DNA from: a virus
DNA length: 64,000 nucleotides
IMG/VR virus record: IMGVR_UViG_3300015251_000001
Location: 1,187-65,186 of that record
Direction: 5' to 3' (one strand)
Shown piece by piece: positions 39,315 through 63,159 of the stretch (within the stretch, counting starts at the first letter, position 1; each line of letters begins with the position of its first letter). The translations under genes and the position numbers were made by a program. Below the pieces are notes generated by a model that did no database searches, was not told the DNA's origin, and saw nothing but the letters and a program-made list of their open reading frames with translations.

Positions 39315-40301
39315 CTAGCGGCCCAGAACGAATTCTCCGAAGGCCAGCAGGATTGGAGCCATTTTGTCCGCTGGGTTGCAGGGCCTGGTGAAGGCATGCA
39401 GCATGTCCAGCAGCCTGACTGCCGCCCCATCGCTTCGCGCCCCCATGATGCATGCATTCAGATAGTTCACTACCACGATGCGGATGGACTCGGCATTGGT
39501 ATCCCCGAGTGCCTTAAGCCCATTGGTGACGTCATCCCACCTCATGTTGCCCTTGACCAGCATGCGGCAGAGGTCAATGATCTCCTTGTTGTCCAGCGGC
39601 GTCTCCAGGATCCTGGCGCACTCCTCGGGATCCTGGACATCGTAGACCATGTTCAGCATTACCAGCGCCCGGCGCGGAGATCCGCCACAGGCCAGACCAA
39701 CTTGTTTCAGGATGGCATCCGGAGTCTTGTAGTCCTCCTTGTCGCAGACCATCTCAAGGAGATCCATGATGCCGTCGAAACGGACCGGCTTCAGTAGATA
39801 GCTGTTGCAGCGCGTGGCGATGGTCTCGGGGATCTTGCCGGATTCCGTGGTGCAGAAGAAATAGTAAACGTGCTCCGGGGGCTCCTCAACGGCCTTGAGC
39901 AGGGATTGCCATGCTTGCTTGGAGAGGCTGTGGCACTCGTCGATGATGAAGGCCTTGTTGGGCTCCGCGCCGAAGCCGTGGTACCGGGCACTGGCCGTGA
40001 CCTCCTTCATCGCATCAATGCCGCTGTTGGAGGCGGCATCAACCTCGATGATTGAACCGGGGCCGCAATTGAAACCCTTGGCCAGAATCCGAGCGATTGT
40101 GGTTTTGCCGGTCCCCGAGGGGCCCGTGAGGATGAAGCAGTGGGGTCTCGTGCTGGCTGCAATGGCTTTGCGGATGGACCGGACCACCTCGTCCTGGCCA
40201 AGCACGTCGTTCAGGTGCTGGGGGCGGTACTTCAATTGCAGAGGCTGCTCCATGGGCGGTGCCGGGGCTTCCACTGCTTCAATCTTTCGTCTGGTGCTCA
40301 T
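39315..40301 (-). CDS. dnaX: DNA polymerase III gamma/tau-like clamp loader
   Basis: LKYRPQ..DVLGQ, GPSGTGKT, EVDAASN.GID, IIDECH, EEPP, TRC. Confidence 0.92.
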   Translation of the reverse strand: MSTRRKIEAVEAPAPPMEQPLQLKYRPQHLNDVLGQDEVVRSIRKAIAASTRPHCFILTGPSGTGKTTIARILAKGFNCGPGSIIEVDAASNSGIDAMKEVTASARYHGFGAEPNKAFIIDECHSLSKQAWQSLLKAVEEPPEHVYYFFCTTESGKIPETIATRCNSYLLKPVRFDGIMDLLEMVCDKEDYKTPDAILKQVGLACGGSPRRALVMLNMVYDVQDPEECARILETPLDNKEIIDLCRMLVKGNMRWDDVTNGLKALGDTNAESIRIVVVNYLNACIMGARSDGAAVRLLDMLHAFTRPCNPADKMAPILLAFGEFVLGR

Positions 40302-42925
40302 GATCCTGCCTTGTAAGGGTTGGGTAGGTTGAAAATGACGTCAGACCGATACTTGCCGATCTCCTCCAATTTGTCCCACTGGTGGCCCACCGAGGCCTCA
40401 ACCACCAGGGGCACGTTGATGTAGTCAAAGCGATGCCGGCACATCTCCTGCACGATCCTCTGGCACTTGGACTCCAGCACTTCATCCCGTAGCACGAAGG
40501 TCAGATCATCGTGCCCATTGAAATTGCACTGGTAATCTGGGTCGTCATCCAGAATAGCAATCTCGGAAAGGGCATCCATTGCGGCAGTCACGATGTCGCA
40601 TGCCGTGCCCTGAATTGGCATGTTGATCAGTTCGTTTTTGGTCATCGGCCCACGCCGGCGCCGGCCCCCGAGAGTTTCGACGTACAGTTTCTTCTCGTAG
40701 CCCTTGATCAGTCTTTCCTGCCAGGTCTTAGTGGCTGCGAAGGTGTCCCAAAATTCGGCTCCAAGGTCATCCGACACGTGGTGCGGGATGCCAAGCTGGT
40801 CCGCACAGCTCTTCATGGAAGCCCCGAAAATCTGTGGGAAGACCCATTTGTTTTTCATTTCCTGCCGAAGGGTCTTCAGTCCCTTCTCGTCCCAGTCAAT
40901 GCTGAACTCCTCAACGATCAGATCCTTGATTGCCGGGAAAATGGCAATGAGCCTTTCGGCCCAGAATTTGTGCACATCGTAATCGGTCCAGCAAGCTCGG
41001 ATGATGGCCTCGTCATCCGTTAGCATGCCGGCTACGCGGAATTCAATCTGCCCGTAGTCACAGGCGAGGAACCACTCCCCTGGCTTCACCTGCACGCACT
41101 GGCGCACTTCCCGGTGCTTGCGCTTCGGCCAGTTATGCATCTCCGAAGAAAGCCGGCCAGTCACGGCCACCATGCCGTTGTAGCTGGCGTGGATGATGCC
41201 GTCATGGCTGACGATCCGCTTTGTCAGCACCGGGGCCAAGTAGGTCGAACGCAGCTTCTCCAACGCCCGGGTCTCCAGGATGAGCGGGGCGCTGGGCACC
41301 TCCTTCGCAGGGATGCGGCTGAGGGCTGCCTCATCGCTCGTTGTCCGCTGGACCCCGCGTTCTTCGACATGGACCTCCTGCCTTTGGCAGATCACCTGCA
41401 TGAGTTTGAGCACGTGCCCGGAATTGCCGGGATCGAAGCTGCCAAACCGATTGGTGAATTCCTTCACCTCTGGGGTCCGACGGATCTTTGCTTCGATCTC
41501 TGAAAGCTGCTGCTCGTACTTGAGGTCCAGCTTTTCGGCCGTCTCAATGTCAACGGGCATCCCCTTGTGTTGAATGCCAACCAGAGTCGGGGTCAAGCGG
41601 AGCTTCCGCTCGTACTCCTCCCGGAAGACGTCCACTGCATAGACCTTAGGCTTCAGGGTATCGCAAAGCAAGTCGGTCCACTTGGTGTCCAATCCGTTGT
41701 AGCGCAACACGGCCTTTATTGAATGCTGCTTAATCCACCCCTTTTGCGAGACATCTACGGGGCTCTGGTCTTTCAGAAAGAAGCCAAAATTGATGCGGCA
41801 TTGGACATCCAGGCTTTTCGTCCCCTCGCGTTCGTCCAGGGTATGACACAGCCCCTGCGTGTCTTCCCACCCCGTCTTGCGAAGCAAGGCTTGCCCGTAT
41901 TCAAAGCCGAGCCACAGCTGTTCGAAGGCCAGGTTGTGGCACACCTTCCGGCCGGACTCCAGGAGAAAGGTTCCGAAAGCCCCGCGAACCTTCTTCATTT
42001 GTGCTTCTGAGCCCCAGCCGTCCGGGTGGTCAATCGCAAAGGCGACCGTGTCGTCAAACTTGCCAATAGCCGCGCACCAAATCCTTGGATCCCTGATGTA
42101 TGGTGTGAAGTCAGAGGTCTCCAGGTCCAGGCCGAGGGACTCCTGCCTGAGGAGCCGGTGGAAGGCGTCCTCTAGCCTCTGGAAATCCCCCGGCTCCTGT
42201 CCGGTAATCAGGCTAATTCCTGCATCGTATGGGGCCTGATAGATCCTTGGCTCGTCAAAGTCATCCCGGTTAAGCAGATCAACGAGTCGGTCCACATCGT
42301 GCTCGATTGCCAGCTCATATTCACTCTTCCCGTAGCTCTTCTTCTTTTCCACGTAGTTGGGATAAATCAGCGGGTAGTACCAGCAAGCATGCCGACCGAT
42401 CTTGGTTGCGATCAGGGTGCCACGAAAGGCAAGGGCATTGCGGTTTAGTCCGGTTGCCCAGTTCAGCGGCAGGTCACCCACGCCAACAACCACCAAGGGC
42501 CGGCGTTGCTCGATGTCCTCAACGATGCGGCCCCGACAGCACTCGATCTCGACTTGGTCCGGGTTCATATTCCGCTCTTTGTCGATCAGCGGCGGCATGC
42601 ACTGCGTGATGTGGTTGCTACGAACGTCCCGCCAGACCTTGTCCCCGAACTGGGATTTGATAGCCCGGCCGGCAGCACCTTTCCAATGCTGCCCGGACTC
42701 ATCCTCGTCCAGGTTCGGGGCCGTGCCGAGTAGATAGATCAGCGGGGTGTCCGAGCCGGATGGTGTCATTTTCGGGGTGATTCTTTCCTGCCCATCCTTC
42801 TCCCTGGGGCACACCTCGCAGCCCATCTTGTTGAGTGCCGTGATGGGGATATCCCGGGCCTTCCCCGAAGGTGCACGCGTGGCTGCCTTCGGTGCCCGCT
42901 TGACTTCGTTGTACAGGAAGCCCAC
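40298..42925 (-). CDS. polA: Family A DNA polymerase with N-terminal UDG-family-4-like domain and 3'-5' exonuclease
   Basis: Exo DLET / HNLAFE / YNGLD; motif A DYGQIEFR, motif B R...KNKWVFPQIFG, motif C GHDDL; N-terminal CEVC...GTAP...QC...CC. Confidence 0.92.
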   Translation of the reverse strand: MGFLYNEVKRAPKAATRAPSGKARDIPITALNKMGCEVCPREKDGQERITPKMTPSGSDTPLIYLLGTAPNLDEDESGQHWKGAAGRAIKSQFGDKVWRDVRSNHITQCMPPLIDKERNMNPDQVEIECCRGRIVEDIEQRRPLVVVGVGDLPLNWATGLNRNALAFRGTLIATKIGRHACWYYPLIYPNYVEKKKSYGKSEYELAIEHDVDRLVDLLNRDDFDEPRIYQAPYDAGISLITGQEPGDFQRLEDAFHRLLRQESLGLDLETSDFTPYIRDPRIWCAAIGKFDDTVAFAIDHPDGWGSEAQMKKVRGAFGTFLLESGRKVCHNLAFEQLWLGFEYGQALLRKTGWEDTQGLCHTLDEREGTKSLDVQCRINFGFFLKDQSPVDVSQKGWIKQHSIKAVLRYNGLDTKWTDLLCDTLKPKVYAVDVFREEYERKLRLTPTLVGIQHKGMPVDIETAEKLDLKYEQQLSEIEAKIRRTPEVKEFTNRFGSFDPGNSGHVLKLMQVICQRQEVHVEERGVQRTTSDEAALSRIPAKEVPSAPLILETRALEKLRSTYLAPVLTKRIVSHDGIIHASYNGMVAVTGRLSSEMHNWPKRKHREVRQCVQVKPGEWFLACDYGQIEFRVAGMLTDDEAIIRACWTDYDVHKFWAERLIAIFPAIKDLIVEEFSIDWDEKGLKTLRQEMKNKWVFPQIFGASMKSCADQLGIPHHVSDDLGAEFWDTFAATKTWQERLIKGYEKKLYVETLGGRRRRGPMTKNELINMPIQGTACDIVTAAMDALSEIAILDDDPDYQCNFNGHDDLTFVLRDEVLESKCQRIVQEMCRHRFDYINVPLVVEASVGHQWDKLEEIGKYRSDVIFNLPNPYKAGS

Positions 42926-44222: not shown

Positions 44223-44535
44223 TTACCTCCTCCGGCTCCCCAACGCGCTCCAAGATGACCGCATTACGCTGGCGCAGCTCCGGAAAGTGTTGATCGTAGT
44301 GGCATTGGTTGCGTGGGCAGCTTCCAGCGCTGATCTCGAGGTCCACGGCATACTGGCACCGCCCGTAGCAGGGGTGGTCAATCAGACGGCTGCGAGTGAA
44401 GCCCTTGAGTGGCCTCAGTTTGCTGCCCATGTATTCCAGATAGGACACCAACAGCTCTGGATGCCTGCCGTCAATCAAGCCATCACCGTAGCCAGTGATC
44501 TCATGCCCCGGGGCACTCACAAGGTAAATGATCAC
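44197..44535 (-). CDS. Small ORF resembling a DpdA/TGT N-terminus plus Cys/His-rich tail
   Basis: GTGA-coupled to dpdA; MIIYLVSA...LLVSYLEY; C-x3-C...C-x4-C. Confidence 0.5.
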   Translation of the reverse strand: MIIYLVSAPGHEITGYGDGLIDGRHPELLVSYLEYMGSKLRPLKGFTRSRLIDHPCYGRCQYAVDLEISAGSCPRNQCHYDQHFPELRQRNAVILERVGEPEEVNADLLGGA

Positions 44536-45476
44536 AGGAGCCCCTGTTGACGAACGGTGTAAGGTTGGAAGGGCTTCTCCAGCTTTGCCCGGCTAACTTC
44601 TCGGAAGAAGGTCACATTGACCACAGCTCGGTGGAAGTAGTTGTCCTTGCACTCGGCGTAGGTCTTGCCGCAGTAGCTTAGCCAGCGATCCAAGATTGCC
44701 CGATGCGCCGGGGGGAGGCTATCCCCGTGCTTCTGGTCCTGATTGGCTTTCGGGTTGTTGGCGCTGACCGTGATCACGCTCGGGGTTTGATCAAAGACGA
44801 ATTCTCCATCTACGAGCTGGGGCAGGTAGATGGCACCATTGGCCGTAATCTTGATCCAGGTGGTGCTGTCGACTGAATGCCAGGGATAGCGGAACATCAG
44901 CACCAAGGCCGTCATGCCAAAACCGTGGGTCTTGACCTTCGGGTGGCCGTCCTTGTCGCAGATCCGCAGGAACAGATCATCAAGCCACGCGCGGCGCTCC
45001 TTGGATGGAATAGAGACGAGGCCGCCAATACCGATGTAGGTGCATCCGTGGGAGATCATCCGGTCGAGGAAGCGCCAGGGCTCCCCATAGTGGAAGACCG
45101 GCAAAGGATCCAGACCCTCGCGCTGCATATAGAGGAAATTTCGCCATGTGGCCTCGGCAGCTTCTTCCCGCTCCTTCGTGGTCGCGCTTCGCCCGGGGGC
45201 ACCCGGGATCACATCAAGGCAGGCATAGGCTTCGATCTTCTCGATGTTGACCTTGATGAAGGCACAGTACTCGTCCAGGTCGATGGCGGAGTTCTTGGAC
45301 CATGCAGAGTAAGCGCCGGAGTCCAAGAAGAAACGGAATTCGTCAGGAGTGATCATGTCGAGCTTTCCTGGGTTGCGCCCCAGATCATGAAAGGAGCCCA
45401 GGTAGATAGCATGTCCTCCATCTACCTGGGCACGGAGCCCTTCTTTCCACGCAGTGGTTGAAAGCCAGGCCAGCAC
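44532..45476 (-). CDS. dpdA: DpdA, 7-deazaguanine DNA transglycosylase (TGT-like)
   Basis: FFLDSGAYSAW, CLDVIPG, LPVFHYGE, IGIGG, KTHGFG, SVDSTTW; adjacent to folE and queC. GTG start inferred just after the folE stop. Confidence 0.85.
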   Translation of the reverse strand: MLAWLSTTAWKEGLRAQVDGGHAIYLGSFHDLGRNPGKLDMITPDEFRFFLDSGAYSAWSKNSAIDLDEYCAFIKVNIEKIEAYACLDVIPGAPGRSATTKEREEAAEATWRNFLYMQREGLDPLPVFHYGEPWRFLDRMISHGCTYIGIGGLVSIPSKERRAWLDDLFLRICDKDGHPKVKTHGFGMTALVLMFRYPWHSVDSTTWIKITANGAIYLPQLVDGEFVFDQTPSVITVSANNPKANQDQKHGDSLPPAHRAILDRWLSYCGKTYAECKDNYFHRAVVNVTFFREVSRAKLEKPFQPYTVRQQGLL

Positions 45477-45478
45477 GG

Positions 45479-46078
45479 CTACTCGCGGCAGAGCGCCATG
45501 AATTCGGCCCGGACCTCTGACTTCTCGCGCAGGGCACCGCGAAGGGCACTGGTGGTTGTGGTGCTGCCCTGCTTGCCCACGCCACGGGAGCACATGCAGA
45601 AGTGCTTTGCGCGCATGATCACGCCGACCCCCAGCGGCTCCAGCGCTTCATCCACGCAGTCCGCCACTTGGTGCGTGAGCCTCTCCTGCACCTGCAATCG
45701 CTGGGCGTAGGCATCGACCACCCGGGCCAGCTTCGAGAGGCCGACCACCCGACCATTCGGGATGTAGGCCACGGAGGCTGTGCCAAAGAAGGGGGCCATG
45801 TGATGTTCGCAGTGGCTGTAGAACTCGATGCCGTTGACCACCACCATCTCGTCCACGCACAGCTCGGCTCCATCGGTGAAGGTCTTCAGCAGCTTTCCGG
45901 GGTCCTTGATGGCATACCCCTGCGTCCATTCCTGCCAGGCCTTGACAACGCGTCCTGGCGTTTCCTGGAGCCCTTCCCGGTGGGGATCCTCGCCGATGTT
46001 CCACAGCAAGGAGCGCACCGCGGTTTCAGGCTCGCAGCGCGCGATTCCTTCTGTGATCCTTGGGGGCTTCCTGGCCAT
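45479..46078 (-). CDS. folE: GTP cyclohydrolase I
   Basis: GLQETP.RV, FYSHCEHH..PF.G, GLSKLAR, QVQERLT, HFCMCSRGV. Confidence 0.97.
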   Translation of the reverse strand: MARKPPRITEGIARCEPETAVRSLLWNIGEDPHREGLQETPGRVVKAWQEWTQGYAIKDPGKLLKTFTDGAELCVDEMVVVNGIEFYSHCEHHMAPFFGTASVAYIPNGRVVGLSKLARVVDAYAQRLQVQERLTHQVADCVDEALEPLGVGVIMRAKHFCMCSRGVGKQGSTTTTSALRGALREKSEVRAEFMALCRE

Positions 46079-46080
46079 GA

Positions 46081-46965
46081 TTACACCGCAGGGCCGAAGT
46101 CATCATCGTTTGGCATCGGATACCCCAGGGTCGTCCCCAGGTCCAAATCAAAGCCGAGCTTTCCTTTGAGTCTATGGATGTCCTGCGCGAGGAGATGGAT
46201 CTGGTGCTCGTTCGTGTAGGGGGTTGTGGGCGGCATTCCCATCTTCCCCTCCATCACGGCCCGTATTACCAGCGGATCGGGAAGGCCGGCTTCAAAGAAG
46301 CCATGGGCCCGCAGCACGCTGGCGTGGTCACTGCCGGTTGGCGGATACTTGCCATCGTAGGCCGTGTGCGTGAAGGCAAGGGCGGGGTAGCATCCCTTCT
46401 GTTCCAGGGCGAAGTGAATCGACTGCGCCTTGTCCAGCCACATGAGTGGGGCATCGATGCGCAGGCTCCCGTGCATGAGGCCAAGCGACAAACCGATCGT
46501 GGCCTCCATGGAACGGATGAAGGAATTCCGGCAATCCGGATAGTTGGCATTGTCAGCTTGGCACACGCCGGTGACCAGCACGCCACAGCCAAGGGCCACA
46601 GCCCGATTGGCAGCCATCACCAGGAACAGCGCGTTGCGCATGGGGACGAAGGTCTTCTCTACCCGGTCGCCGATGATCTCGTCCATGCTGTCGAAGTCGG
46701 TGTAGGTCTCCAGCGGCTGTGTTGAATCGGTCAACGGGCTTGTGCTTTCCAGCACCGGGCCCAGGCCCACGAAGTGGTGGGTGATGACATCGGCCAGACA
46801 GGCGACGCGCGCGGCGGCCCTGATCTCTTCTGCATGCGTCTGCCCGTAGTCGAAGGTCACGGCATGCACTTCCTGGAAACGCTGCTTGGCCCAGAAAAGA
46901 CAGGTGGTGCTGTCCTGCCCACCGGACAGGATGACCAGGGCTTTGTTCGATGACAATTGGTTCAT
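46081..46965 (-). CDS. queC: 7-cyano-7-deazaguanine synthase, variant lacking the zinc-ligand cysteines
   Basis: SGGQDSTT, FDYGQ.H..E, TFVPMRN..FL, NYPDCR, PLMWLDKA; alternative start 46977. Confidence 0.93.
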   Translation of the reverse strand: MNQLSSNKALVILSGGQDSTTCLFWAKQRFQEVHAVTFDYGQTHAEEIRAAARVACLADVITHHFVGLGPVLESTSPLTDSTQPLETYTDFDSMDEIIGDRVEKTFVPMRNALFLVMAANRAVALGCGVLVTGVCQADNANYPDCRNSFIRSMEATIGLSLGLMHGSLRIDAPLMWLDKAQSIHFALEQKGCYPALAFTHTAYDGKYPPTGSDHASVLRAHGFFEAGLPDPLVIRAVMEGKMGMPPTTPYTNEHQIHLLAQDIHRLKGKLGFDLDLGTTLGYPMPNDDDFGPAV

Positions 46966-46987
46966 TGGAATCTCCATGGTAGGAATG

Positions 46988-47061: not shown

Positions 47062-47982
47062 CTACTTCAGCTTGCCCGCCTTCTTCAGCAGATCGATCAT
47101 CTTGTGCGCTTCGGCGTAGTTCATGTTCAGAGTGTTGTCCTGAAACTTCAGATCCTCTTTCTTCAGGATTTTGCCGATGTCCTCAACCGTGCGGGTCAGG
47201 TCTTCAATGATCAGCTCGCGGATACGAGTGCCCACCGACACCGGGCCGTTGCTGGCGCGGGTGCGCTTGCCGTCTTCGGCAGGCGCTTCCTTCTTGACTT
47301 CCTCGGTCTTGTCGGCGCTGCGGCGGCCGGCACCACTGGTTTCTGCCTTGCGCTTGCCTTCGACCTTGATGGATTCCACGCGATCCCGGGCAAATTCCTC
47401 CTCGGCCCCGTCGATCTTCAGGACGATCAGCTCGCCGTCCATCTCCACCAGCTCGCCGGTGATGACCTTGCCACGCTTGGTGGTGACCGTGACGGTATCG
47501 CCCACGACCGGATCCTTGGGGCCTTCTTCGGCCGGATCAGAGCCCCCGGCAAGGGGTTCCACCTTCTCGACGCGGTCCATGGCCAGCTCCTCCTCGTCCC
47601 CGGCCGGTGTCTTCAGGACGATCAGGTCCTTGTCGAGTTCCACGATCTTGCCCGTGACGACCTTGCCACGCTTGGTGGTGACCTTGACGTCGTCCTTGAC
47701 CTTGGGCTCGTAGGCCTTGGCGGGGGCTTCGGCTGACACGCGGCGCCGGCCGGTGGCGGCAGGCGGATCCATGTCCGGGAATTCCGGGAGCGACTTCTTG
47801 GCCGTGGCGGCATCGGCGCTGTCGTTCATCCAGTCTTGGGCTTCCTTGCTGAGCCCGTCCCAGACCTTCTCGGGAACCTTGTTGACGGCCATGGCCAGCC
47901 GCAACAGGAAGGTTTGCCGATCCTCGTCCTTCTTGGGATCGACTTCGGCGGCGTCGCACAGTTCCTTTTGGATCTTGCTCAT
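47062..47982 (-). CDS. Hypothetical protein with two tandem Sm/SH3-like beta-barrel repeats
   Basis: V.VTTKRGKV.TG..VE.D..LIVLK...EEE...DRVE.. twice; 25-bp exact DNA repeat at 47464-47488 and 47659-47683. Confidence 0.7.
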   Translation of the reverse strand: MSKIQKELCDAAEVDPKKDEDRQTFLLRLAMAVNKVPEKVWDGLSKEAQDWMNDSADAATAKKSLPEFPDMDPPAATGRRRVSAEAPAKAYEPKVKDDVKVTTKRGKVVTGKIVELDKDLIVLKTPAGDEEELAMDRVEKVEPLAGGSDPAEEGPKDPVVGDTVTVTTKRGKVITGELVEMDGELIVLKIDGAEEEFARDRVESIKVEGKRKAETSGAGRRSADKTEEVKKEAPAEDGKRTRASNGPVSVGTRIRELIIEDLTRTVEDIGKILKKEDLKFQDNTLNMNYAEAHKMIDLLKKAGKLK

Positions 47983-48053: not shown

Positions 48054-48605
48054 GCTGGTGGAAGTGAAATAGTCCTCCACCAGCTTCACGGGATCGAGTG
48101 CCGGGTCGAGGCCCAACAGTTTGTTCAGGTGGCGGGATCCCCCCGCCTTGTTATTCCCTCCTGCGCGCCATGCATCAAAGGCGGCCTCCAACAGTTCCTT
48201 GGGGGCGTCCAGGAAAACAGACAACACGAGGCGGACCTCCTTTGGAGCCTCCTTGATCATGACCATAAGGAAGCCGCTGTTCTCCAGGTCGCCCGGGGCT
48301 TCGGCAGCCGGACCTGCGCCAGAATCCACACTGATGCAATTCCGATCTTCCGTGTCGTAGCTGGCCATGTCCGAAAAGCGATTCGACCATGCCCGCTTGA
48401 ACAAGGCCATGAAGGCCTGGGGCGTGTCGTATTCCGGGCTCTTCGGGAAGCGCTTGCAACAGCGAAGGAAGCACTCGTATGCCTCCTGCATAACTTCGTC
48501 CCGGGCCATCGTGCGTTCAACGCGCCAATAGGACAGGGACCCTTTAGAAAGCTGGTTGACAACCCAACCCATGATAGGACCTTCAAAAACCGGCTGGTAG
48601 CTCAT
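48048..48605 (-). CDS. Sigma70/ECF region-2-like protein
   Basis: RDEVMQEAYECFLRCCKRF...FMALFKRAWSNRFSDM resembles sigma region 2; weak region-4-like APKEVRLVLSVF. Confidence 0.55.
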   Translation of the reverse strand: MSYQPVFEGPIMGWVVNQLSKGSLSYWRVERTMARDEVMQEAYECFLRCCKRFPKSPEYDTPQAFMALFKRAWSNRFSDMASYDTEDRNCISVDSGAGPAAEAPGDLENSGFLMVMIKEAPKEVRLVLSVFLDAPKELLEAAFDAWRAGGNNKAGGSRHLNKLLGLDPALDPVKLVEDYFTSTSV

Positions 48606-49072
48606 ATGGCAACCCTCTTCTTATAGGGACCCCGCTTCTTGCCCATGCGCGCCAATGCTGCCTTTGCCTGGATCTCTGGCGTGATCCAGTGATTGACCCT
48701 GCCCTTCATGGAAGCCGAAAGCTGATCCCGGTGCTCCTGGCTGACGGGTCGCCCCGCGAGCGCCTGGGAGATCCTTTGCCGCGTCTCATCTCGGAGTGGC
48801 ACCCCAAGATGACCAGCGCTAGAAACGAGCCGTTGGTTGTACGGCGGCTTGTGCTTCATGATTGCCCCTAGTTCCGCTTCACAGGCCCTGGAGAAAATCG
48901 TAAAACGCTGGTAGAGTCCCAATTCAGTTTTGACTCCAGTGCGCCGGTAGAAGTCTTTCCATCGCTTCTCTGGGTCTACGCTTCGACCGATATAAATTAT
49001 TCCACCGTGAACCGGGTCCAGGAGGTAATAAACGTAGTGGACGATGGGCCCCTTGAATTCTGGTTTATACAC
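48602..49072 (-). CDS. GIY-YIG homing endonuclease
   Basis: YVYYL...IYIGRS..P..R...AE..AI.KHKPPYN, ETRQRIS / EHRDQLS NUMOD-like repeats. Confidence 0.8.
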   Translation of the reverse strand: MYKPEFKGPIVHYVYYLLDPVHGGIIYIGRSVDPEKRWKDFYRRTGVKTELGLYQRFTIFSRACEAELGAIMKHKPPYNQRLVSSAGHLGVPLRDETRQRISQALAGRPVSQEHRDQLSASMKGRVNHWITPEIQAKAALARMGKKRGPYKKRVAI

Positions 49073-55304: not shown

Positions 55305-55474
55305 CCGAGCTTCTCCCGGTTCTTCTCGTCCGCGAAGCTGTGCGCCCTCTTCCAGCGGTTTTGCAGACGGGCGCACAATCGGTGCCACTTCACGGGCACG
55401 GCACTTACGCGCCAGTAGCCGTTAATCTTGCGGAGATGGGGCTTTTCCGCGCGCCTGACGTCAGCGGCGCTCAT
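55301..55474 (-). CDS. Small basic hypothetical protein (57 aa)
   Basis: ATGA overlaps at both ends: MSAADVRRAEKPHLRKINGYWRV... Confidence 0.55.
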   Translation of the reverse strand: MSAADVRRAEKPHLRKINGYWRVSAVPVKWHRLCARLQNRWKRAHSFADEKNREKLG

Positions 55475-56310
55475 GACAGCCCCACGTAGAGGTGGGTTTG
55501 TAGGGAGAGGCGGAACCCGTACTTGAGGCAGAGCTCCCCCGCGTGATGATGATTGGCTTCGTTCCTGGTGCGATCCAGAAGACCGGGGGTCCAGAAGGAG
55601 ACAGCCTCGCCCTCGTTTCGAGCCGAGAGGTCCCCAGGCTGCGCATTTGCCTGGGTCATGAGCTTCAGTGGCCTGCCTTCCTGATAGCAGTTCATGGGGG
55701 ATACGTAAACCGGCTTCTCCTGTTCACGCATCCATTCATAAGCCCAATCGGGGGGCATGTGATAGGCATTCAGGGGGTTGGAATCAACCACGAATTTCAG
55801 GCAATCGGCTCGGGACAGAACCGCTTCCAATGGCCGGAGATAGCGACCTTTCACTGGCCCGGCCTGGCCCGGTTCCGTGCACTTAGGGCTGACGACAAGG
55901 GTCGTGTTCAGGGGGAGCAAACGTTCTATGAGCCCGTTGCTTTCGACCTGGATTTCTGCCCACTTGCTTGACTGGTGGAGCAGGAAGCCGGCCAGATTCG
56001 CTTGCAAGGTGGGCTCCCCACCAGTGACCACCAGGACAACCTGATCCCCGGCTGCGGAAGGGGCAAAGCCAAAGACAGCCGTCAGGGCGTACCGTTCGAT
56101 CTCATCAAAGGTCATCCATTCGCCTTTATCGAAGGCAGTGTCACAGAAGCTGCACGCCAGGTTGCACCTGGCCAGGCGCACGAAGACGGCCGGCCGGCCG
56201 GTGAAAGGCCCCTCTCCTTGTAGGGTGTAGAAAATCGAGGTCACCAGCAGGGAGTTCATCGGGGCGTCCTTGAACGCCCTTTGCCCTGTGATTTCGTTGG
56301 TTCCGAACAT
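55471..56310 (-). CDS. queE: 7-carboxy-7-deazaguanine synthase (radical SAM)
   Basis: IFYTLQGEG.F.G..AVFVRL..CNLACSFCDT, VTGGEP.LQ, VSPK, RLSLQTH. Confidence 0.95.
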   Translation of the reverse strand: MFGTNEITGQRAFKDAPMNSLLVTSIFYTLQGEGPFTGRPAVFVRLARCNLACSFCDTAFDKGEWMTFDEIERYALTAVFGFAPSAAGDQVVLVVTGGEPTLQANLAGFLLHQSSKWAEIQVESNGLIERLLPLNTTLVVSPKCTEPGQAGPVKGRYLRPLEAVLSRADCLKFVVDSNPLNAYHMPPDWAYEWMREQEKPVYVSPMNCYQEGRPLKLMTQANAQPGDLSARNEGEAVSFWTPGLLDRTRNEANHHHAGELCLKYGFRLSLQTHLYVGLS

Positions 56311-61830: not shown

Positions 61831-62274
61831 ATGCACTACTCCACCAAGACCTACGGCCACGAGATCGGCCTCAGCGCCTGCTTTCGTCAGCACCGTGCCG
61901 AATCCCATTGCCGGCTGCTCCACGGCTATGCCCTGGCCGTGAAGCTGACCTTTGCTGCTGAGGGGCTGGATGTCCGTAACTGGGTCGTCGACTTCGGCAG
62001 CCTCAAATCCCTGAAAGGCTGGTTGGAGGGCACCTTCGACCACACCCTGTTGGTGGCGGAAGACGATCCCATGAAGTCATACCTGCTTGATCTGGACAAG
62101 ATGGGCCTGGCCAAGGTAGTTGAGGTGCCGGCCACTGGCTGCGAGGCCTTCGCTGAGCTGATCTTCCATGCCACGGAAATTTGGCTGGAGGACAACGGAT
62201 ACACCCCGCGCTGTGAGCTCGTCAGCGTGGAGGTTTCAGAACATGGCGCTAACAGCGCCAGTTATTCTCTTTAG
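61831..62274 (+). CDS. queD: 6-carboxy-5,6,7,8-tetrahydropterin synthase
   Basis: FRQHRAESHC.LLHGY, WVVDFG.LK, FDHTLL, CEAFAE, EHGANSA. Confidence 0.93.
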   Translation: MHYSTKTYGHEIGLSACFRQHRAESHCRLLHGYALAVKLTFAAEGLDVRNWVVDFGSLKSLKGWLEGTFDHTLLVAEDDPMKSYLLDLDKMGLAKVVEVPATGCEAFAELIFHATEIWLEDNGYTPRCELVSVEVSEHGANSASYSL

Positions 62275-62286
62275 CTCTTTAACCTG

Positions 62287-63159
62287 GTGATGGAGAAATT
62301 GATGAAGACCAATGCATTTTCGACCTGGATTCTGTGGGCAATCACGATGATTGCCGGCTTGATCGCCTTTCGTTGGCTGCACCCGGCCCTGGGGGTCTAC
62401 TGGGTGGTGGTTGGATCAGCCGTGCTGATCGGCTCCAGCTTCCTTCCCTTGACGCTCTATGCCGGCCGAGGCCGCATGTTCGCGCCCAGTGGGGGCCAGG
62501 CTGCGGTTGACTCTGGGTTCTTCGTGGAGGAGCTTCTGGATGGGGAACAGGCAAAGGTGGATCCGTGGGACCTGCACCGCCCGCTCATGCGCATGAGCGG
62601 ACAGCGGTTGCCGGACCAACCAATGATCACCAGCGAGGTGATCAGGTGCTACGCCGGGATCCTGGAAGAGGCCAGCGAAGCAGGGATCACCCTCCTGGAC
62701 ATCATGCGGAATTCATCACTCAGGGCTGACCAGCTCCAGGATTTTGCTTTGATGAGGCAGACCCTTGCCACGGCAGTTAGATCCATGGGTCTCGCTAGCC
62801 GCAGGGCTTGTCAGATTCTGGGGACCCCAGCATTCAGTGACTGGGCTGGCCGGCCGTTGACCCTGAAGCAAGCTGTCGCGCTGCTCGACGACCACCTGGA
62901 TCTTCAGGTGATGAATACCGGGTTTGGGCTGTCCGCAGGCTTGCCCTGCCAGTCGGGCTACTTGGCTGTGGGCGAGTCCAACGTTAGCAAAGCAGATCCG
63001 GCCACCGGCCGGATCTTGAGGGATAAGTCAGGCAGGTGGATAAAGGGACCGGATTACAAGCAGCCGGACCTGAGGAAGGTGATTTTGGATCGCTTCCCGA
63101 ATCTGCGATCGGAATGGGATTCAGGATTCGCCCCGACCCAGCCAAGCCACCTGGTCTGA
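62287..63159 (+). CDS. MazG-like/all-alpha NTP pyrophosphatase with N-terminal transmembrane segments
   Basis: EEASE...LLDDHLD...ESNVSK...G.WIKGPDYKQPDL; two hydrophobic N-terminal helices. Confidence 0.7.
   Translation: MMEKLMKTNAFSTWILWAITMIAGLIAFRWLHPALGVYWVVVGSAVLIGSSFLPLTLYAGRGRMFAPSGGQAAVDSGFFVEELLDGEQAKVDPWDLHRPLMRMSGQRLPDQPMITSEVIRCYAGILEEASEAGITLLDIMRNSSLRADQLQDFALMRQTLATAVRSMGLASRRACQILGTPAFSDWAGRPLTLKQAVALLDDHLDLQVMNTGFGLSAGLPCQSGYLAVGESNVSKADPATGRILRDKSGRWIKGPDYKQPDLRKVILDRFPNLRSEWDSGFAPTQPSHLV

Follow-up and report, generated by a model that had tools for sequence, protein, structure and literature searches.

The QueC homologue that we describe here is very probably (we would put it at about 85%) a functional preQ0 synthase belonging to a large lineage that lacks the zinc site of the family, in which a conserved C-terminal segment would take the place of the metal; the predicted base in the DNA of this phage is dPreQ0. 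The gene lies at 46081..46977 on the minus strand of the 64,000-bp window that we analysed, which covers almost the whole of an IMG/VR virus record of 66,340 bp that has direct terminal repeats. Its product (P0001) has 298 aa, or 294 aa if translation begins at the alternative start Met5, as in identical database entries. From the sequence features, the predicted fold, the distribution, and the gene contexts, all observed or computed, we infer that the enzyme is catalytically active and free of metal, and that its extension compensates for the lost site.

Profile, motif, and fold comparisons all place the protein in the QueC family. It matches PF06508 over residues 12-230 with 169 bits (cut-off 22; E 1.3e-49) and scores 160.8 bits against the TIGR00364 equivalog, above the cut-off of 150.3, and reaches 151 bits against NF008317 in the same NCBIfam profile search, below the strict 378-bit cut-off of that model. 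The PP-loop ATP-binding motif SGGQDS (residues 18-23; 46909..46926, minus strand), which is nearly invariant in the homologue alignment, and YPDC (residues 146-149) read intact from the translation, just as the preliminary description had reported. Previous work on E. coli QueC has defined a signature of YxQxHxxE, VPxRN, and YPDC together with an essential tyrosine beside the first zinc cysteine, Cys1 (Y35, R99, Y131, and Y189; PMC13329287). All of these elements are kept in the phage protein as Y44-G-Q46-T-H48-A-E-E51, V111-P-M-R114-N115, Y146-P-D-C149, and Tyr207, the last aligning as the counterpart of the essential Y189. The AlphaFold2 model, built from a 115-sequence alignment, has the QueC fold with a pLDDT of 91.8 and a pTM of 0.89, and superposes with VIA-align on B. 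subtilis 3BL5 (Z 22.6, rmsd 2.4 Å over 190 residues, model range 10-233) and on Pectobacterium 2PG3 (Z 21.2), with the former zinc region included; the best Foldseek matches of the model are QueC structures. Judged by these scores, the protein is a canonical-type QueC that lacks the zinc motif only.

The former zinc knuckle occupies residues 206-220 (46318..46362, minus strand; A-YDGKYPP-T-GS-D-HA-S), as placed by alignments to 2PG3 and 3BL5. Opposite the four zinc cysteines of both structures, HMMER alignments set A206, T214, D217, and S220 (THTAYDGKYPPTGSDHASVLRAHGF), such that Cys1 is replaced by Ala, Cys2 by Thr, Cys3 by Asp, and Cys4 by Ser, with Tyr207 retained and with the spacing found in close zinc-containing relatives (HTCYAGxxPPCGxCHxC). 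This bears out the earlier observation of a QueC without any of its four zinc ligands, which had been made on positions 46081-46440, the C-terminal 120 codons of the minus-strand gene. Among 218 Cys-poor homologues, Ala or Ser stands at the Cys1 position, only Asp (82%) or Asn (18%, including the QueC of Pseudomonas phage Iggy) at the Cys3 position, and Ser, Thr, or Asn at the Cys4 position, and the Tyr next to Cys1 is invariant; position 214, that of Cys2, is hypervariable and takes T, V, N, L, S, I, P, K, M, or Y. These residue frequencies at the four positions, together with the invariant Tyr, indicate strong selection for a polar, non-metal replacement of the four-cysteine (Cys4) site, rather than a pattern of decay. 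Since position 214 is hypervariable and position 217 is either Asp or Asn, a conserved alternative metal site is unlikely. The zinc independence proposed in the preliminary description is thus plausible at the level of sequence, given the missing Cys4 site and the residues at 214 and 217, and it is from the sequence that freedom from metal is deduced.

Beyond the knuckle, a segment at residues 232-257 (46207..46284, minus strand; consensus PDPLVxRAxxEGxMxLPxTxNY; pLDDT 96-97) is conserved across the clade and absent from zinc-containing relatives in our alignments, and bacterial housekeeping forms of 243 aa end just past it. It is followed by a lineage-specific tail at residues 258-298 (46084..46206, minus strand), which, on AlphaFold2 secondary structure and pLDDT, is predicted to form an amphipathic helix (257-273) and a disordered acidic end. 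This tail is conserved among the closest homologues only, and tail length across the clade ranges from 2 to 96 aa. In the phage protein, 63 residues follow the PDP motif as against a median of 10 in zinc-containing relatives, an extension of ~53 aa that agrees with the earlier estimate of about 55 aa; for zinc-free forms in general, the median tail is 42 aa, as against 10 aa for zinc forms. We measured the extension by tail length after PDP, as a strict LPxTxNY expression undercounts it and misses the phage protein itself, which reads PPTTPY at this motif. Model confidence is high (pLDDT 94-98) over residues 200-270, a range that includes the former zinc loop and the greater part of the extension. 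Because the tail co-varies with zinc loss and is modelled at high pLDDT, we suggest that the conserved segment may compensate structurally for the lost metal by packing against the core.

Homologues of the same type are widespread. All of the best 120 matches in a collection of 5.8 billion proteins (57-87% identity), many of them on phage-sized contigs, are without the four cysteines, and they share the motif HTAYDGxYPPxxxDHAxxLRAxGFxxAGxPDPLVxRAxxEGxMxLPxTxNY. The nearest 150 cluster representatives at 50% identity divide into 62 with no zinc cysteine, 14 with Cys1 only, and 74 canonical forms, and a Cys-free QueC is found in 74 of the 80 nearest IMG/VR loci. Among cultured phages, approximately the top 43 of 269 QueC-bearing records are of the Cys-free type (at least 48% identity, with the alignment running into the extension), and the motif was confirmed directly in Iggy, R26L, RHph_Y55, Bhz54, Me-ZS1, vB_Ade_ART, MMDA13, and vB_EpM_ZHS; the QueC of Vibrio phage GR7B, 39% identical to that of the window, is canonical. 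The phage protein carries both of the elements by which we define the zinc-site-free (Iggy-type) lineage, HT[AS]YDGxYPPxxx[DN]Hxx and PDPLVxRAxxEGxMxLPxTxNY, and by sequence it is a member of this large group, which comprises hundreds of phages and some bacteria. In the literature that we searched, a limited library, neither a zinc-free QueC lineage nor its cysteine loss was explicitly described.

Several related genes have unusual architectures of their own. One homologue of 576 aa (P0178) contains an intein-like, in-frame element of ~280 aa ending ...FVHN|CYDG, exactly at the position of the first zinc cysteine; another of 544 aa (P0235) has an in-frame insert that ends ...FIHN|SGYPDC, just ahead of YPDC; and three further proteins (P0147, P0148, and P0179) are interrupted between VPxRN and YPDC by an insert of ~200 aa. 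Vibrio phage vB_VcorM_GR7B (locus L164; MT366760.1 100500-102090) has two neighbouring genes annotated as 7-cyano-7-deazaguanine synthase, and the product of one, GR7B_118, is canonical, keeping four cysteines with a longer Cys1-Cys2 loop.

The zinc-free state is strongly clustered in phylogeny, requiring 8 changes on a FastTree phylogeny of 197 sequences as against a mean of 64 when states are shuffled, and 4 changes on an IQ-TREE quick tree of 69 sequences, where well-supported branches force 3 of them. A single clean origin of this state is not supported, as both trees need at least 3 changes. Specifically, five Desulfovibrio-type proteins that contain zinc cysteines and have no extension nest on the zinc-free side of the tree, which suggests that the zinc site was lost repeatedly or else regained. 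Such QueCs with zinc cysteines, which share 56-60% identity with the phage protein and fall inside the zinc-free side, occur on Desulfovibrio MAG contigs L015, L017-L020, L023-L025, and L027-L029.

The phage of the window has genes for a complete preQ0 pathway (FolE, QueD, QueE, and QueC) together with DpdA. Directly downstream of queC is folE (GTP cyclohydrolase I; 45479..46078, minus strand; PF01227 1e-70; NF006825 241 bits), followed by dpdA (DNA 7-deazaguanine transglycosylase; 44532..45356, minus strand), which was recognised by a match to phrog_887, queuine tRNA-ribosyltransferase (9.1e-54), and by synteny with the clusters of Iggy, MMDA13, and ZHS; its likely start is the ATG at 45356, although the longest ORF reaches 45593 and overlaps folE. 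Beyond dpdA lie a beta-clamp-like gene and then a family-A DNA polymerase. The gene for QueE (55471..56310, minus strand) has a PF04055 domain, NCBIfam QueE matches of 1e-14 to 6e-19 that are below equivalog cut-offs, and a match to phrog_2076, QueE-like (5.8e-47), and the gene for QueD (6-carboxytetrahydropterin synthase; 61831..62274, plus strand, likely start ATG 61831) scores 59-60 bits against PF01242 and encodes a protein 59% identical to the QueD of Iggy. Between 66 and 72 of the 80 related viral loci have folE or queE. We found no QueF, QueF-L, MMDA13-type QueF-like protein, or Gat domain in the phage of the window, where the sole PF14489 match is the expected weak cross-match inside FolE. 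This gene set predicts DNA that is modified with dPreQ0 and resistant to restriction.

Other ORFs in these regions add detail to the neighbourhood. The one directly upstream of queC (47062-47982, minus strand) encodes a protein of 306 aa that combines two RimP-C/SH3-like repeats (VTTKRGKV.TG.IVE.D..LIVLK) with a C-terminus like phrog_38529; we considered it as a counterpart of the tail of Iggy QueC, and comparison revealed no similarity. A homing-endonuclease-like ORF with GIY-YIG and NUMOD3 (48602-49072, minus strand) is situated within the replication module, the family-A DNA polymerase (40298-42925, minus strand) has an N-terminal UDG-superfamily domain (PF03167, 3.4e-07), and the ORF just 3' of queD (62287-63159, plus strand) has a C-terminal match to phrog_671, nucleotide pyrophosphohydrolase (MazG-like).

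What such an enzyme produces can be judged from four independent lines of evidence, drawn mostly from phages and bacteria that carry the same variant, and all four indicate preQ0. The preliminary description had raised the possibility that a zinc-independent QueC stops at the amide, ADG, or yields a different 7-substituent and hence a different DNA base. Without zinc, only the first adenylation and the amidation would then take place, and DpdA would insert ADG (as dADG) or a further derivative. There are phages with dADG, and an ADG synthase named 'QueC*' has been proposed for Campylobacter phages (PMC10516641), but we regard such an arrest as quite improbable here. The variant is common, and Iggy, which has it, contains dPreQ0 only, at 16.9% of G, with dADG, dCDG, dPreQ1, dG+, and dQ also monitored by LC-MS/MS (PMC10484667) and no dADG detectable; the host, P. 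aeruginosa, has a QueC of its own, so that dPreQ0 in Iggy is no strict proof that the phage enzyme completes the nitrile step. A second line of evidence comes from QueF. Enzymes of the QueF family act on the nitrile of preQ0, and phages that carry one would therefore need a QueC that forms the nitrile. In Dinoroseobacter phage R26L, the gene for a Cys-free QueC neighbours those for FolE and for a true QueF, which scores 108 bits against PF14489 and shows both the ESKSWKLY motif for NADPH and the catalytic CPxTGQPD; 22 of the 74 Cys-free IMG/VR loci have a QueF-family gene in the cluster (43-61% identical to R26L QueF by tblastn, at positions distinct from FolE). The 'QueF-like' gp33 of MMDA13 has no Pfam match, and 6 loci with a gp33-type protein were left out of this count. 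QueF also accompanies Cys-free QueC in bacteria with a full queuosine pathway. Finally, the QueC* of Campylobacter phage CP220, the only ADG-stopping QueC so far proposed, reads CYKGGNKPCNVCPTC and keeps all four zinc cysteines, so that zinc loss is not what goes with an arrest at ADG; it deviates from QueC elsewhere, and the phage protein is only ~28-32% identical to the Campylobacter proteins over partial length. As far as the comparative data allow, the proposal of an altered product is thus not upheld, and synthesis of preQ0 remains the preferred reading.

Two other explanations concern the site itself and the fate of the gene. A metal, zinc or another, could be re-ligated by a site made of His204, Asp217, and His218, with water or a residue of the tail as a possible further ligand; conservation of the two histidines is ~90-94%, and 82% of Cys-poor sequences have Asp at 217. 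Nevertheless, the closest zinc-containing relatives share the two histidines (SHTCY...CHAC), which thus cannot count as new ligands, Asn takes position 217 in the remaining 18%, position 214 is hypervariable, and positions 206 and 220 hold Ala/Ser and Ser/Thr/Asn, all of which make a rebuilt metal site unlikely. Far harder to credit is a decaying or inactive relic, with the host QueC supplying preQ0 during infection. The hosts of such phages do as a rule have a QueC of their own, and an enzyme without its hallmark motif is often one without function, yet the lineage bears the mark of strong purifying selection, with hundreds of sequences down to ~40% identity and every catalytic motif intact; moreover, the fold is confidently predicted, the gene is kept in complete folE-queD-queE-dpdA sets, and four bacterial MAGs with QueF, Tgt, and QueA have no other strong QueC match than a Cys-free protein.

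These bacteria came from a scan of species-representative genomes, in which small marine MAGs (Dadabacteria, Thermodesulfobacteriota, and similar labels) had Cys-free QueC on long chromosomal contigs. In the four MAGs, the Cys-free protein matches PF06508 with 184-196 bits and all other matches are PP-loop cross-matches of 18-24 bits, and 4 of 4 have QueF (114-123 bits) on the same contig ~30 kb from QueC, and Tgt (460-485 bits) and QueA in the genome. The zinc-free enzyme appears, from this gene content, to be the preQ0 synthase that these cells use for queuosine; the MAGs are of ~1 Mb and of unknown completeness, such that a second, canonical QueC may be missing from the bins, though all four agree. 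In one of them (L049), the Cys-free queC has chromosomal surroundings with methylmalonyl-CoA mutase and ThyX housekeeping genes, and it overlaps a downstream radical-SAM gene that is QueE-like by PF04055 and Fer4_12 matches only. A Fibrimonadaceae MAG (L057, 9361-11570) has a Cys-free QueC with a gene for endonuclease VII on one side and a DHPS-like gene, for a pterin-binding protein, on the other; the genome gave no QueF match, and the copy could be cellular or phage-derived.

Taken as a preQ0 synthase, the phage enzyme would carry out the two ATP-dependent steps from CDG to ADG and from ADG to preQ0 on an unchanged PP-loop active site. The Cys4 knuckle, which normally pins the C-terminal helices, would be replaced by small or polar residues (Ala/Ser at the first position, variable at the second, Asp/Asn at the third, and Ser/Thr/Asn at the fourth), and the added segment RAxxEGxMxLPxTxNY would pack on the core in place of the metal. 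FolE, QueD, and QueE of the phage would together with QueC supply preQ0, which DpdA would then exchange for guanine in the phage DNA. Structural work on the QueC family has described the zinc site as completing the fold (PMC13279940), and a replaceable, structural role of zinc fits this description. We hold it likely that the hallmark zinc is purely structural and dispensable, and that a polar, hydrogen-bonded cluster and a C-terminal clamp have given rise to a metal-free preQ0 synthase in many phages of Proteobacteria and Cyanobacteria and in the queuosine housekeeping pathway of small-genome marine bacteria. If so, selection might favour such an enzyme where zinc is limiting, or in infections during which free zinc or the redox state of cysteine is unreliable.

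Accounts of QueC to date, among them a 2026 survey of the family (PMC13329287), regard the Cys4 zinc motif as a hallmark that is needed for function, and predict that preQ0 synthesis is lost where the signature is altered. The lineage described here contradicts the rule that Cys4 is required and apparently keeps normal activity. For annotation, this means that Cys-free genes should still be called preQ0 synthases and that dPreQ0 should be predicted for the DNA of the phages that carry them. More generally, these observations bear on what zinc does in QueC and are no pointer to a new DNA modification; we would see in them a structural variant of a known enzyme, which corrects a textbook generalisation, rather than new chemistry.

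Set against canonical QueC (PF06508 Cluster 1, EC 6.3.4.20), the phage protein is alike in fold (Z 21-23), in its PP-loop, in YxQxHxxE, VPxRN, and YPDC, in the essential Tyr, in the folE/queD/queE pathway context, and in a score above the TIGR00364 equivalog cut-off; it differs in lacking all four cysteines of C(x)7-8CxxCxxC and in the ~53 added C-terminal residues, of which ~25 are conserved in the zinc-free lineage. A further point of reference is the QueC of Iggy (QEA09769.1; Iggyvirus, Queuovirinae), the sole representative of the lineage with experimental characterisation, a protein of 353 aa that is 53% identical, has likewise lost the four cysteines (to S, T, N, and N), and shares the PDPLVxR...MxLPxTxNY segment, a long C-terminal tail, and the syntenic order queC ... 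folE-dpdA-clamp-polymerase. Here too there are differences: the tail of Iggy QueC is ~55 aa longer and of unrelated sequence, Asn is present at the Cys3 and Cys4 positions where the phage of the window has Asp and Ser, and queE and queD lie within one cluster in Iggy but 9 and 15 kb off in the window. The authors who described Iggy remarked on a 'prolonged QueC', not on the loss of cysteines (PMC10484667).

Other proteins with the QueC fold stand further off. The QueC* of CP220 is also a phage-encoded QueC homologue in a pathway of 7-deazaguanine DNA modification, but it has YGSNH and FPDC in place of YxQxH and YPDC and no C-terminal extension, whereas YGQTH and YPDC of the phage protein are canonical and its Cys4 site is missing; given these differences and the distance between the two, we rejected a QueC*-type assignment. 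An assignment to Gat-QueC, as in phage 9g and Crenarchaeota, was likewise set aside, the phage protein consisting of the QueC domain alone in 298 aa with FolE and the SH3-like repeat protein as its neighbours. Readings as QatC or Cap9, for which there are no Qat or CBASS partners, and as a LarE-type protein were ruled out by domain content and context. Gat-QueC, QatC, and Cap9 are all, like the phage enzyme, PP-loop ATPases of the QueC fold; unlike it, published QatC (PMC13279940, PMC13329287) and the Cap9 chain that we aligned keep the cysteines of the zinc site, and both modify other proteins.
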